The position numbers were made by a program. From contig JAFGJV010000038.1 of NCBI GenBank assembly GCA_016928955.1, positions 1-35,255 of the forward strand: a DNA stretch of 35,255 nucleotides. The letters are read 5' to 3'. The stretch is from Spirochaetales bacterium. GTDB taxonomy: Bacteria > Spirochaetota > Spirochaetia > Treponematales > UBA12059. This document shows, one piece after another, positions 6,001-12,000 of the stretch; the stretch's first letter is position 1; each line of letters begins with the position of its first letter.

Positions 6001-9000
6001 CCAGCTGGACCGGTTCGGCGGGGTTCTGCACCGTGCCGGGCACGGGCAGCTGGGCAACCACCACGCCGGATTTCTCCGACCCTTCAGCTGGCCGCACGGT
6101 AAAGCTGAAATTGATTCCGGCCTTTTCAATGGCCCTGGCGGCCGCCTCTGAATTGAGTCCGGCGAGTTCAGGCACCGTGACCTTGGACTGTTCGGGACCT
6201 CGGGACACCACAAAGGTCATCTGCACGGCCCCGGTCAGCTCGGTTTCGGCCTGGGGCGACTGCTGGAGTATGGTTCCCGCCGGGCTGGGGTCGTACACGT
6301 AGACGGGCGGCTCGTGCACGGTGATCAGCTGGCGCGACGAGCCGAACACAGTCTGGAGCGACAGCCGCACCTCGTCCAGGTCCTGGCCCACGTAGTCGCC
6401 CACGCGGTTCTGCGCGGCGCCCCTGGACACGACGATGGCTATGCGGCGGCCGGCCTTTACCACGGCTCCGGGAGGCGGATCCTGCTCGATGATCAGGCCG
6501 CGGGTGGCCGGGTCGTCGGAGAAGCGGAGCGACACGCGGGGATACAATTCCTTTTCCTGCAGCTTGATGAGGGCCGTGGACAGCTCCAGGTCCCGCACGT
6601 CGGGGACCAGGGTCTGCTCGGCGCCGCGCAGGGTCAGGAAAAAGGCCACAACCGCGGACACGGCCATGAGTATGATCACGCCCGACAGGGACACTATCGT
6701 CATGCGCGCATGCTTGGGATCCAGTTCGTCGAGTTTCTTGAAGCTGAAAAAGGATCGCATGTCGTTAAAATCCATTATGGTCTCCCGTCAGGTGGCGTGA
6801 TCAGCATCGGAGCTCCGGCCGCGTCGCCCCGGCTCATGGAAGTCCGAGCACAGAGCCGACGAATCCCCGCGCCCCGTTGAGAAAATCCTTGTAGCCGAGG
6901 GGTTTCTTGCCCCTCAGTTGTAGGCGCTTGAGGGCAACGAGGCCTTGTCCAGTTTGTACCATTATACCTTTCGGCGTGTCTACCGAGAGCACCGTGCCCG
7001 GCTCCGCGTCCGACGAGCCGCCGGACGGCTCCAGGTCCAAAAGGGCCAGGCGCTCGCCGTTCCAGGTAGTCCACGCCCCAGGCCAAGGATAGTAGGCGCG
7101 GGCCCTGGCGTCTATATCCAGGGCGTCAAGGGACCAGTCCACGCGGCCGTCGTCCTTGCTGATGGCAGAGCTGTAGGTGGCCTGCGACTCGTCCTGCGCT
7201 TCCGGGGCTTCTCTGCCGGCCATGGCGTTTTCCACGGCCCTGGCCAACAGCCTGGCGCCCGCGGCGGCAGCCTTGGCGCTCAGGGACTCGGTGGTTTCCC
7301 GCGCGTCCAAGGCCATGGTTTCCCGCAGGAGCACGTCGCCCGAGTCCATGCGGAGCGCGAGCTTCTGGACGGATACGCCCGTCACTTGGTCGCGGGACAG
7401 GATGGCGTAGGGAATGGGCGCGCATCCCCTCCAGCGCGGGAGGAGCGAGGGATGGGCGTTGATGCCGCCGCGCGGGAACAAGGACAGGAACTTGGGACCA
7501 AAGAGGCGGCCGTAGGCAAAGACCACGAGCAGGTCGGGCTCGAGCGCGGCCACGGCCTCGCGCTCGGCCGGACCGAGCCGCCCGGGCTCAAGTACAGGCA
7601 CGCCGGGCAGGATTTCTGCAGCCTTGAGCGCAACCGGCGTGGGCTCGGGCTTGAGGCCGCGTCCCTTGGGCGCCGGAGGATTGGTCAGCACGCCTACCAC
7701 GTGGGCCACGGCGGCCACGGTTTCCAGAGACGGTACCGCTATCTCTGGGCTGCCAGCAAAGAGGACGCGCACGGGCGTCATGCCCTCATGCGTTTTTCGT
7801 ATTGCTTGAGCAGGCGCTCTCGCACGCGCTCGGGCAGGCGGTCGGTGAACAGGACGCCGTCCAGGTGGTCCAGCTCGTGCTGGATGACCCTGGCCAGGAG
7901 GCCGTCGGCTTCCATGGTGAAGGGCCTCCCGCGCTCGCTGTATGCCTGGACCTGCACGGACGCCGAGCGCTGGAGGTCGGCGTAGGTGCCCGGTATGGAC
8001 AGGCAGCCCTCCTCGTACTCGGACAGGTCCTGGCTGGTTCCTATGATCTCCGGGTTGATGAACACAAAGGGCTTGCCGCCTTCCAGTTGGATCACGAACA
8101 GGCGCTGGCCTATGCCCACCTGGGGACCGGCCAAGCCTATGCCACGCCCGAATTTCATGGTGGTGAACATCGTTTCTATGGTCTTGGACAGCTCGGCGTC
8201 GAAATTTTCCACCGGGGCGGCCTTTTGCCGCAAAACCTCGGCTCCGATTGTATAAATATCGAACATGGACACTCCCTCAAAGACCGCCGTCGCGGTTCCT
8301 ACAAATATACCTACAGAGAAGCACCCTGTAAAACCTCAGGGCTCGGCGCTCAGGTCTAGGGGCAGCTCAAACCGGTCGCCGGGCTCAAGGCCAACCCTCT
8401 CGAACCAGCCCTTGGGCACTTCCAGGGCGTAACGGGCGTAACGCTCTGACCTGACGACGCTTTCCGACAGGGGCTCCATGTCGTGGATCTCGCGGATGGT
8501 GCCGTCGGACGCGATAAAGGCTATGGACAGGGGGACCAGCGTGTTCTTCATCCAGAACGACATGCGCTGGTCGCTGTTCCACACAAAGAGCATGCCCGTG
8601 CCGTCAGGCAGCTTGGTGCGGTGCATGAGGCCCGTCTGGCGCTCTTCCTGGGTGAGGGCCAGCTCGACCCTCACTTCAACGCCGCCCGAGCGCAGCACCG
8701 CCGTGGCCAAGCCGGACTGCGGCCGATCGCCCGTGCACGACACGGCACTTGCCGCCAGCGCGCAGGCCAGCGCGAACACCCACCCAGATCCCCGAACGCC
8801 AACGCGTCGCATCACAACCTCCGGCCGGAACGCGTCATCGCTCAGTCCGGCCAGCCTCTACTGTAGCAGGAAGCGAAGCCCGGGGCTAGCGGGGCGAGGG
8901 CAAAAGAAAACCGCCCGGCTTGAGCGCGGGCGGTGTTTCTGAGGGCCAAGGTCGGGCCTAAAGGGCTTAGTAGGACTTGCCCTCACGAGCCTTGCGCGTC

Positions 9001-12000
9001 TTGCGCAGGAGCTTGCGCTCAATGGCCTTCATCTTGCGATTGCGGATGGCGGAGGGTTTCTCAAAGTACTCGCGCTTTTTCCACTCTCGGATGATGCCCT
9101 CCTTCTCCACCATGCGCTTGAAGCGCTTGATGGCCTTCTCGAGGGGCTCGCTCTCATCGACGATAATTTGGCTGATAGGAAATCACCTCCCTTCAATCGC
9201 GGGCATCATTGTACGGAAATCGGGCATTTTGTCAATCCCGAGCAGGGCTTCAGGGTCGCAGGCCACTCCGAGCACCCTGAGTTCCCAGTGCAGGTGGGGA
9301 CCGGTGGACAGGCCGGTTGACCCCACGGCCCCCAGGGATTGCCCGCGTTCCACAATCTGGCCGGGGAGGACGTCCATGCGGCTCAGGTGCATGTAAATGG
9401 TATACACGCCGGGCAGGTGCTCCACGATGACGGTCAGCCCGGTGGTTATGCGCTCCTCAGCCATGACCACCTTGCCCCGCCCCGGCGCCGATACCGGCGT
9501 GCCCGTGGGATAGCCGTAGTCTATGCCGGCGTGCACGCTGTAGGCGGACGTGCCTGATGAGTATTTATAGGTGCGCTGGTCGCCAAAGAAGGCCGTTCTC
9601 CGGTTGCCGCTCAGGGGGGCTGAGAAGCCGCCGTCAAGATACACGGCGCCGGGATCCACGGTCAGGAGCACGGCGTTGTAGTGCTCGGCCTGCTCGTCCT
9701 TACGGGGGTCCGGCTGGGCGCGTATGCGCGTTAGGGCAGCGTTCAGGACCAAGGTTTCCTTGTTCCAGGTCCGCTTCCGCAAATCCATGTCCACCGTGGC
9801 CAGCTCGACGCCGGCAGAGTACGCCACAACGGTGGCCGTGCCCACGGGGGCGTCGGTGGGCACGCCGACCAGGGCCATCCAGGCGGCCCGGGGCGACGAC
9901 GGCCTGGCCGAGGGACCGGCGCCGGGTACCGGTTCGCCTGGCACGCGGTCGGTCCTCCGGGGCACGCGGTGGGCGGGCGCTCTGGGGCTCTCACTGCCGT
10001 CAGGGTAGCGGATGCTCAGCTCCACGGGCAGGGCTGGCAGGCTCTGCCCGGAACGCACGGCCAGGGACACGAACACGGGGTCGCCCTGCCGGACAGCCGC
10101 CGGGGCTACCACGGCGCAGCCCGGATCCGCCGGCGCGGCCGCCTGGGCTTCCTGGGCGCGGATGGCGTGCGCCCCCGCTATGCAGGCTGCCATGGCGAGA
10201 ACGCGGACAAGATGTTTCATGCCGCCATGCTAACCCAAGGGGGACGCGCCCATCAAGGACGCACCGAGACGCCGTATCCGCATTTGACCACCACCGGGGC
10301 TCGTCCTATACTGGTGTATGCCCGACCAGGGGCCCCGGGGTAGCATGAGTTCCCAAACCGTTTCTATGGACGACAAGCCCAGCGCCGCGGACCTGAACAC
10401 CCTGGCCGCCAGCCTTTCCCAGGGCGAGGCGCTCCCGGCGGCGTCGGCGGAACTGTCCCGAGCCTATGAGGAAGTGCAGAAGCGGAACGACGAATTCCGC
10501 CGCGAGCTGGCCATGGCTCGCAAGGTACAGGCAACCTTCATACCGCAGGACAATGACTTCCCCCAGCGCTCCGAGTTGGCCTTTGGCGGCTATTACGAGG
10601 CCATGGCCGACGTTGGCGGCGACATATACGACATCATACGCATAGGCAAGAACGCCTACGGCCTGATCATAGCCGACGTGTCCGGCCACGGCGTGGCGGC
10701 CGCCCTGGTCACGGCCCTGGTCAAGATAGCCTTCCGTTCGCGCATGTCCTGGGGCGTGCGCACCGACGACGTGTGTTCAGCCGTCAACGCGTCGCTCCAC
10801 GAGATCCTGGGCGACGGCGAGCGCTACGTCACGGCCTTTGTGGCCATACTCAACCTGGAAACGGGCATCCTGGAGTACACCAACGCGGCCCACCACCCGG
10901 CCCTGCTGATCCGTGGCGACCAGATGTTCAAGCTGGATTCGGACGGCGGATTTCTGGGCATATTCACATCGCCGCGTTTCGGCCGGGAATTCATAGCCCT
11001 GGAACCCGGCGACCGGGTATACCTGTACACCGACGGCATACCGGAGTCGCGCAGCTACCTGGGAGAAGAGTACGGTTTTGATCGTCTGGCCGCCCGCATC
11101 ATGAGCGCGCCGGAGGCGTCGCCGTCTGAGCTGGTGTCCTGGCTCATGCGGGACGTCATGGCCTTTACCATGGGCGCCCCGCCCCACGACGACCGGGCCG
11201 TGCTGTGCGTGTCGTTCAATGGGCTGGCTCCGGAGCGCAAGCCGGGCGACGCGCACGCCGGCCAGGAGGGAACAGCCTCTACCCCCGAGTGGCTGGAAAC
11301 GGCCGGTCAAGAACCCGAACCTCCTCCCAGGCCCCCCGAGGATCCCGTGCGTAAGGGCGCGTACCGCGCGGCCACGGCCGTCCACGACCCCAAGGCCGCC
11401 CTGGATGCCTGGAAACGCTACCTGGACGCCTACCCGGACGACGCCCGAGCCATGAACAACGCCGGCGTTATCCTGTACCGCCTCGGGCGCATGGACGAGG
11501 CAGAGGCCATGCTCAGGAGCGCGGTCATAGCGTCGCCCGGGGACAGGAAACTGCTCCACAACCTTGCCCTTGTATCGAAAGGCGGGCGGAGGATATAAAG
11601 GAAGCATGAACATCTTCCTGTCGCTGACCGGCAAGCCGCGGGGCGGCACCCCCCTTTCCTACGTATACGCCATACCCGTCTGGTACCGCCTGGCGGCTAC
11701 CCTGATCACGGCCATCCTGCTGGCCGGGGCTCTCGCGGTGGAAGGCGTGGCCCTGGGCTGGGTGGTGGTGGTCCTGTCAGCCATCGGAGCCCTCTATGAG
11801 GAACGCTGGACCTTCTCATCGGAGTCCCGCACGGTGACGGCCCGCCTGGGCCTTCTGTTCCTGGCAAAAGGGCCGAGCTTCTCCTTTGACGACGTGGCCC
11901 TGGTAACGGTGGACATCTTTGCCAAAGGCAGGATGGACCAAAGCGTCAAACCGGAGGCAGACAAGATGCCCCTGGGATCCCAGGCGCGCCTGGTCGTCGA

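Follow-up and report, generated by a model that had tools for sequence, protein, structure and literature searches.

AUC start codon and extended Shine-Dalgarno sequence of rpsU in a spirochaete: a plausible case of feedback control by bS21

The window, a 35,255-nucleotide stretch of contig JAFGJV010000038.1 from a member of the Treponematales, contains the gene for ribosomal protein bS21, rpsU, at 8967..9176 on the minus strand. Its frame opens at ATC (9176-9174) and closes at TAA (8969-8967), giving a 69-aa product whose C-terminal helix is long and basic and which lacks an equivalent of Tyr54. Read on the minus strand, GGAGGTGA occupies 9190-9183 and is followed by six bases and then ATC. 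A TGA (9183..9185, minus strand) lies in the rpsU frame three codons 5' of ATC, and the 69-aa form has no AUG, GUG or UUG start. An earlier note on this DNA had argued that this TGA bars any other start, and the in-frame stop bears this out; the sole ORF of rpsU with a common start is one of 48 aa opening at ATG 9113, which has no Shine-Dalgarno (SD) sequence (-2.6 kcal/mol). The placement of the TGA inside the SD also stands, with the correction that it is the stop codon of the upstream gene, an M23-family peptidase (9183..10220, minus strand) whose last codons hold the SD and a predicted promoter of rpsU.

Genomic sequence, a comparison of 149 loci, NCBI records and the register of solved bS21 chains all point to ATC as the start codon. 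The 69-aa form covers positions 2-58 of 58 in TIGR00030 (E 7.8e-20; 70.5 bits against a cut-off of 28.95), scoring above cut-off as a full-length TIGR00030/PF01165 family member, and it is the single match in the genome. It is colinear with solved bS21 chains, residues 4-65 aligning with residues 4-65 of PDB chain 8fmw_U (E 5.3e-20). Across codons 2-21, comparison with 36 same-family loci yields 264 third-position differences against 26 at first and 37 at second positions, or 203 synonymous against 85 non-synonymous codon differences; because the differences fall mostly at third positions, these codons are coding. The comparative data thus confirm the earlier reading of an AUC start behind an extended SD and a 69-aa bS21. 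The accompanying claim that the upstream residues are translated holds for codons 2-21, but the conserved bases 5' of the start are largely promoter, so conservation there is no proof of translation by itself.

NCBI records for proteins of this kind already begin at the ATC position, an annotation that the earlier note overlooked, as it did the gene's own promoter. The Met-started 69-aa string is present in the protein collection, while the exact Ile-started 69-aa and Ser-started 68-aa strings are absent from it. The 393-aa protein clustered with the 48-aa call proved to be unrelated in sequence, which speaks against an M23-bS21 fusion within what was covered, this cluster and proteins of 37-121 aa. 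A literature search found no report of such an rpsU start. The near-cognate start accounts for the 48-aa or 72-73-aa bS21 proteins that ab initio callers produce in these genomes.

The extended SD, GAAGGGAGGTGATT (9181..9194, minus strand), is predicted to form 12 consecutive pairs with 16S nucleotides 1532-1543, or 14 if nucleotides 1530-1531 pair as well. Since no 16S rRNA is assembled in this genome, the tail, with a presumed mature 3' end, was taken from three same-family genomes (16S was found in 3 of 42 family genomes). The predicted energy is -22.9 kcal/mol (-21.0 kcal/mol, again with 12 pairs, against nucleotides 1532-1544), and none of the 2306 predicted genes is as strong, their best value being -18.6 and their median -8.7 kcal/mol; the longest run of pairs in any of them is at most 11. 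Three tail lengths that contain nucleotides 1532-1533 all keep the site in first place, and with the 6-nt core alone it joins a group of 345 genes of the same strength, so its excess strength lies in the extensions. In an unanchored scan of 5812 seeded sites, rpsU again comes first, but narrowly, with three AUG-adjacent sites close behind at -21.7 to -22.3 kcal/mol. SD use is common in this genome, as 59% of predicted genes reach -8 kcal/mol or lower compared with 11% of mock windows. The 30 other ribosomal-protein genes start with ATG (26) or GTG (4) behind SDs of -5.9 to -14.8 kcal/mol.

The start-codon survey covers 149 rpsU loci of the order Treponematales. Near-cognate codons occupy the start position in 77 (ATC 51, ATT 19, ACG 4, CTG 2, ATA 1), the other 72 use AUG, UUG or GUG (AUG in 40), and every codon found there is at most one base from AUG. 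Records of Rectinema and Sediminispirochaeta carry ATT, ATC or ATA starts. The pattern of an earlier 24-locus tally is unchanged, and the case for the AUC start and for its conservation is now stronger than the earlier note made it. The claim that families with AUG, UUG or GUG carry the same SD did not hold up: all 77 non-canonical loci retain the long motif with a spacer of 5 or 6 nt, whereas the 40 AUG loci have weaker SDs (median -18.2 versus -22.7 kcal/mol) and looser spacing. One family, f5, has an SD that is just as long (13 pairs in 34 of 36 loci) together with UUG, AUG or GUG starts, and another, f3, has mostly AUG and a weaker SD, so the AUC codon is dispensable. An ATC locus (G104) that nests inside a UUG/AUG clade is probably a separate gain, on a quick tree of 69 columns that cannot fix the ancestral start state. 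Covariation of codon, SD and leader tracks phylogeny and amounts to only about six changes on this poorly resolved tree. The product is 67-78 aa long in 147 of 149 loci, and none has an aromatic residue at positions 53-54. For a core ribosomal gene, a class-wide AUC, ACG or CUG start is in itself unusual.

A sigma70-type promoter is predicted within the 3' end of the M23 gene, comprising a -35 hexamer TTGACA (9230..9235, minus strand) and a -10 hexamer TACAAT (9208..9213, minus strand) 31 nt before the start codon. It matches 11 of 12 consensus positions, against a mean of 0.1 sites in shuffled sequence, and a similar site lies just 5' of the SD in all 36 family loci. Usual promoter geometry would place the transcript start near 9200, leaving a leader of about 24 nt. 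Among loci having such a site, it falls within 33 nt of the start in 67 of 72 non-canonical and 0 of 47 canonical loci. The leader has no stable structure beyond shuffled controls (z +1.2 and +0.6), which argues against a regulatory leader fold. Downstream, a hairpin with a U tract (8901..8940, minus strand; -22.1 kcal/mol, z -4.5) resembles an intrinsic terminator, and a loose test that had no control places a hairpin with a U run after rpsU in 113 of 146 loci. The rpsU transcript is thus probably monocistronic, and overlap with the M23 gene is not required in relatives. This conserved promoter, short leader and terminator, all predicted, add to what the earlier note described. Four metatranscriptome runs from one study, covering 8300-10300, consist of contigs at depth 2-8 with holes and treat genes on both strands alike, and are therefore uninformative on transcript ends or level; one run covers the ATC region, where no other letter is listed.

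Several known systems share part of this arrangement. In Flavobacterium johnsoniae (PMC9976891, PMC13000457, PMC13000453), the same gene carries the genome's strongest SD, an extended one by this type's measure of 9-13 consecutive pairs, with 13 pairs seen compared with 12-14 predicted here, and a short leader of 25 nt is predicted compared with about 24 nt. That genome lacks SDs, sequesters its anti-SD through Tyr54 and starts rpsU at AUG; the spirochaete uses SDs commonly and has a near-cognate start and a long basic bS21 tail. The Tyr54 signature is missing from 149 of 149 loci (Borrelia bS21 has Lys53; PMC10618245), and this absence together with common SD use excludes membership in the Bacteroidia type. 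In infC, which is autoregulated at AUU or AUA in E. coli, F. johnsoniae and S. aureus (PMC7797042, PMC13009471), a gene of the initiation machinery likewise has a conserved near-cognate start. The earlier analogy to infC is nevertheless weak, because bS21 is not the factor that checks or rejects the codon and in this order infC has TTG as its start codon in all 30 loci. Flavobacterium rpsU, where the extended SD helix excludes bS21, is the closer precedent.

S. aureus cvfC1 (AUU) and ccpN (AUA) also combine an extended start-proximal SD with a conserved non-canonical start (PMC13009471). Extended SDs are common in that species (above 30%) and its bS21 is short, whereas bS21 is long here and the motif of that study precedes 310 of 2306 genes (13%), against 128 of 2205 mock windows (6%). 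Deinococcus provides a lineage-conserved AUC start in dnaA (ATC) and a ribosomal-protein gene, rpsL, with a non-canonical CTG start (PMC2830850). Those starts, in other genes, were established by N-terminal proteomics, unlike the sequence evidence here, and the passages of that paper dealing with them make no link to extended SDs or bS21.

The AUC start, the extended SD and the promoter- and terminator-like sites are established by comparative analysis; feedback control of rpsU is plausible. In the preferred explanation, a strong promoter would yield a short monocistronic transcript whose translation is gated by two signals, the near-cognate AUC and the genome's longest SD. Because fMet-tRNA would read AUC poorly, initiation would depend on the long helix, occurring mainly when 12-14 bp of SD-anti-SD pairing keep the codon in the P site. 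Complete 30S subunits would form only an ordinary helix of 6-8 bp, because the longer one would collide with bS21's long C-terminal helix. Since the long helix would form readily only on 30S subunits lacking bS21, such ribosomes would translate rpsU best and make more bS21, a negative autoregulation. In F. johnsoniae, the 13-bp SD helix on rpsU clashes with the C-terminal helix of bS21 (PMC13000457). Extended helices are argued to be impeded by bS21 of the E. coli type; S. aureus, whose bS21 is short, does form them and combines them with AUU/AUA starts (PMC13009471). Borrelia bS21, colinear with the product here, has a long ordered C-terminal helix (PMC10618245). E. coli bS21 has also been described as a promoter of SD pairing (PMC10931766), and by that analogy the sign of the proposed effect could be reversed. 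In Flavobacterium, the long SD alone gives specificity because the anti-SD is hidden; in a lineage that uses SDs, it would be the weak codon that makes initiation depend on the long helix. Overall, this explanation has roughly an even chance of being correct.

The main rival, which appears doubtful, is that AUC simply sets a low fixed output, the long SD only rescuing or positioning a weak codon without any sensing of bS21; its premise is that a strong promoter and a short unstructured leader would otherwise make too much of a small basic protein of which each ribosome needs one copy. The near-consensus promoter, the leader without stable structure, the stronger SDs that accompany weaker codons and the roughly 10% of AUG output that S. 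aureus genes with no relation to bS21 reach with extended SDs and AUU/AUA (PMC13009471) are all consistent with it. The long SD is not compensation alone, however, because it persists with UUG and AUG in family f5; that the genome's longest SD again falls on rpsU, as in Bacteroidia, and that other ribosomal-protein genes here lack this design also argue against a mere throttle. Control through IF3 and assembly is improbable. IF3 on mature 30S subunits would reject AUC, and low IF3 or immature subunits would raise bS21, a late-assembly protein; IF3 lowers near-cognate initiation (PMC7797042), late assembly defects in E. coli subunits lead to misinitiation at near-cognate codons (PMC6868393), and all rpsU start codons lie one base or less from AUG. 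Yet infC itself starts at UUG rather than AUH, S21 is absent from PMC6868393, and the longest SD would be left unexplained.

Coupling to, or readthrough from, the M23 gene, whose stop sits in the SD six bases before ATC, is very unlikely. A long frame does end at that TGA, in the rpsU frame, here and in most family loci with a 6-nt spacer, but fewer than 40 codons are open before it in 8 of 37 family loci (one contig-edge locus not counted), the TGA is out of frame in spacer-5 loci, and a promoter-like site lies 5' of the SD in all 36 family loci. Slightly less probable still is another start, with ATC an ordinary Ile codon: a GUG inside the SD of relatives (72-73 aa) or the internal AUG (48 aa). 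Of the 77 non-canonical loci, 58 have the GTG in frame, four of them with an ATG at codon -2 as well, and public calls of both kinds exist. However, an in-frame stop makes a common start impossible here and in 18 other loci (19 of 77, five genera). The GTG is preceded by a weak SD (median -5.1 kcal/mol), varies between in-frame and out-of-frame within a single genus, is followed by a stop in 4 of the 15 canonical loci that carry it, and codon -1 varies at all three positions, encoding nine residues. The internal AUG lacks an SD, is replaced by a Leu codon in 5 of 77 loci and would cost 21 conserved residues. Two general causes were also rejected. The three CAU tRNAs include, by eye, a normal initiator with three G-C pairs, arguing against a special initiator tRNA; no tRNA-Ile(GAU) is assembled in this genome. 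Nor is start choice generally relaxed, as near-cognate codons in frame upstream show no enrichment behind strong SDs (at -16 kcal/mol or lower, 1 of 5612 versus 4 of 11,044 control codons).

With chances somewhat below even, the preferred autoregulation would make rpsU of SD-using spirochaetes a two-key sensor of ribosome completeness, in which the near-cognate codon needs the 12-14 bp helix and the helix needs a subunit lacking bS21. Regulation of rpsU in E. coli is stated to be open (PMC10931766). The spirochaete locus offers a leader of about 24 nt in which SD length, spacer and codon can be separated as three elements, and its natural variants AUC, AUU, ACG, CUG, AUA, UUG and AUG form a test bed for regulatory bS21-lacking ribosomes in SD-using bacteria. 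If the proposal is true, autoregulation of bS21 by specialized ribosomes would be a convergent principle across phyla rather than a peculiarity of Bacteroidia.

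The sequence at the start of rpsU reads, on the minus strand, GAAGGGAGGTGA TTTCCT ATC AGC CAA. The bS21 frame opens at an in-frame TGA (9185–9183), which doubles as the stop codon of the upstream M23 peptidase gene; two sense codons, TTT and CCT, separate it from the ATC at 9176–9174, and a TAA at 8969–8967 closes the frame. The 69-aa translation covers positions 2–58 of the 58 in TIGR00030, and its residues 4–65 align to residues 4–65 of the solved 69-aa chain 8fmw_U. Because the 69-aa numbering coincides with that of solved bS21 chains, the ATC is exactly residue 1. Codons 2–21 show mainly silent differences across 36 compared loci of f1, the window's own family. 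The sole open reading frame with a common start (ATG 9113, 48 aa) lacks a Shine-Dalgarno (SD) sequence, its pairing being –2.6 kcal/mol. The earlier note's proposals, that no ATG, GTG or TTG start lies upstream of the ATC behind the TGA and that a 69-aa bS21 begins at the ATC, are both borne out, and rpsU almost certainly initiates at AUC.

All but one of the 151 genomes from the order, which the earlier note names Treponematales, have a PF01165 match; 150 loci were retrieved, and omission of a truncated match (genome G115) leaves 149. Starts other than AUG, UUG or GUG, here termed non-canonical, occupy 77 loci in 30 of 62 genera. The residue-1 codon is ATC (23), ATT (8), ACG (4) or CTG (2) in the 37 f1 loci, ATA in the single f2 locus, ATC (23) or ATT (11) in the 34 f4 loci, and ATC in all four f6 loci. 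Family f3 (37 loci) has ATG 30, TTG 5 and GTG 2, and f5 (36 loci) has TTG 22, ATG 10, GTG 3 and ATC 1. All 149 codons are AUG or its single-base neighbors. ACG, a very rare bacterial start codon, is seen at L061, L056–L058, L165, L167 and L169, and CTG at L021 and L074, in two genera. The f5 genome with ATC, G104, is nested in its clade behind a supported branch of a quick tree on 69 columns; about six start-codon changes are required, and the ancestral state is not fixable from such a tree.

Other orders of the same class carry ATC (5), TTG (2) or ATG (1) in the eight genomes read of ten sampled. In other classes, a common start was seen by eye at or near the aligned position in 58 of 59 loci, chosen by score and family (57 of 169 genomes); L279 (genome G297) was unclear, with no SD or common start visible there. 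Among the best 80 of 519 named loci, a set skewed to close relatives and overlapping the order sample, 62 are non-canonical, including Rectinema (ATT) and Sediminispirochaeta (ATC, ATA), and Brucepastera has GTG. The AUC-type start is real and conserved across much of a class.

Initiation at a different codon is highly improbable. An in-frame stop removes every common start in 19 of the 77 non-canonical loci (five genera, all f1). The GTG within the SD is in frame at codon –3 in the other 58, but its frame switches with a one-base spacer change inside genus g3, little pairing precedes it (median –5.1), all three positions of codon –1 vary, and 4 of 15 canonical loci carrying the same GTG have a stop after it. 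Four of the 58 also have ATG at –2, and their start is ambiguous. In f5, L134, L144, L125 and L089 have an in-frame SD GTG and then a stop directly ahead of the UUG start, a two-codon frame that is probably a by-product of the SD. NCBI-named bS21 proteins of 69–70 aa have Met at the ATC position, as does P0006, the 69-aa record of the window's own gene, so databases already contain the start site in individual records; lengths of 48 or 71–75 aa come from other sources. The 90% cluster of the 48-aa call also holds P0004, an unrelated 393-aa protein, which is a database artefact.

SD pairing was scored against the 16S tail of three f1 genomes, GGAUCACCUCCUUUCU (16S is not assembled in the window's genome). 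The rpsU SD has 14 predicted pairs (–22.9 kcal/mol), or 12 (–21.0) with nt 1532–1544 only. None of 2306 genes predicted by a simple caller made for the analysis has an SD as strong (best –18.6, median –8.7). With tails lacking nt 1532–1533, one to four genes equal or exceed it, and with a 6-nt core 345 do. It ranks first of 5812 seeded sites in an unanchored scan, in which three ATG-abutting sites reach –21.7 to –22.3. SD use is general in this genome, 59% of genes reaching –8 kcal/mol or below versus 11% of mock windows. Medians for related, non-independent loci are –22.7 behind non-canonical starts, –23.0 behind GUG/UUG and –18.2 behind AUG. The spacer is fixed at 5–6 nt in 77/77 non-canonical loci. 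At L189, L191, L199, L210, L211 and L232, AUG follows the same extended SD at a longer spacer (~7–9 nt counted from GGTGA), which might reflect a shift in spacing on loss of the weak codon. Elsewhere in the genome, an ACG behind a –17.1 SD, three codons ahead of the GTG predicted to start a 1752-aa gene (contig C21, 52406, minus), is possibly a chance occurrence.

A sigma70-type promoter-like site (TTGACA, 16 nt, TACAAT; 9235–9208, minus) sits within the 3' end of the M23 gene. By an ad hoc score, with G085 omitted as too short, similar sites occur in 36/36 f1, 30/34 f4, 4/4 f6, 1/1 f2, 32/37 f3 and 16/36 f5 loci; in-gene control windows gave none. Among loci possessing one, its distance to the start is at most 33 nt in 67/72 non-canonical versus 0/47 canonical. 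By usual promoter geometry the leader would be ~24 nt, hardly longer than the SD. A strong hairpin and U tract follow rpsU.

Thirty other ribosomal-protein genes start with ATG (26) or GTG (4), a count biased to common starts because they were located by eye. The earlier note's analogy with infC is weak: rpsU is not an infC-type loop, and infC, which elsewhere starts with AUU/AUA, has TTG behind GGAGG-like SDs in 30/30 loci of the order (L154, L305–L333; contig C35 near 32818, minus). This invariant UUG may itself be regulatory. The L35 and L20 genes start with ATG in 30/30 loci. On C21 (55146–53080, minus), tuf directly follows rpsL-rpsG, and fusA does not intervene. The S10 cluster (36978, minus) lies ~16 kb beyond, past unrelated genes.

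Judged from sequence, the conserved start, SD, promoter-like and terminator-like sites could serve a bS21-sensing control. PMC13000457 and PMC9976891 describe a 13-bp SD helix on Flavobacterium johnsoniae rpsU that collides with the bS21 C-terminal helix, and faster rpsU translation by bS21-lacking ribosomes. A Staphylococcus aureus study argues that E. coli-type bS21 would hinder an extended helix, and reports ~10% of AUG output when an extended SD precedes an AUU/AUA start (PMC13009471). In spirochaete bS21 the C-terminal helix is long and ordered (PMC10618245). A long SD alone cannot discriminate, because any ribosome in an SD-using genome reads the core. With a weak codon, initiation would come to rely on the pairs beyond the core, which would form only in the absence of bS21. 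We consider such control to have an even chance of being correct. Against it count the absence of Tyr54 from bS21 in all 149 loci, the long SDs that f5 keeps with UUG/AUG, the loss in f3, and a review's statement that SD pairing is promoted by E. coli bS21 (PMC10931766). A fixed throttle is a distinctly weaker contender, sensing of IF3 or assembly is doubtful, and coupling to the upstream M23 gene is very improbable.

A literature search covering few subscription papers did not turn up any publication that describes spirochaete rpsU with a non-canonical start; the start has been annotated piecemeal and is apparently undescribed as a pattern. The window's rpsU is proposed to work like that of Flavobacterium, although the SD-less genome and Tyr54 that define that system are both missing here. 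The proposed mechanism is directly testable.
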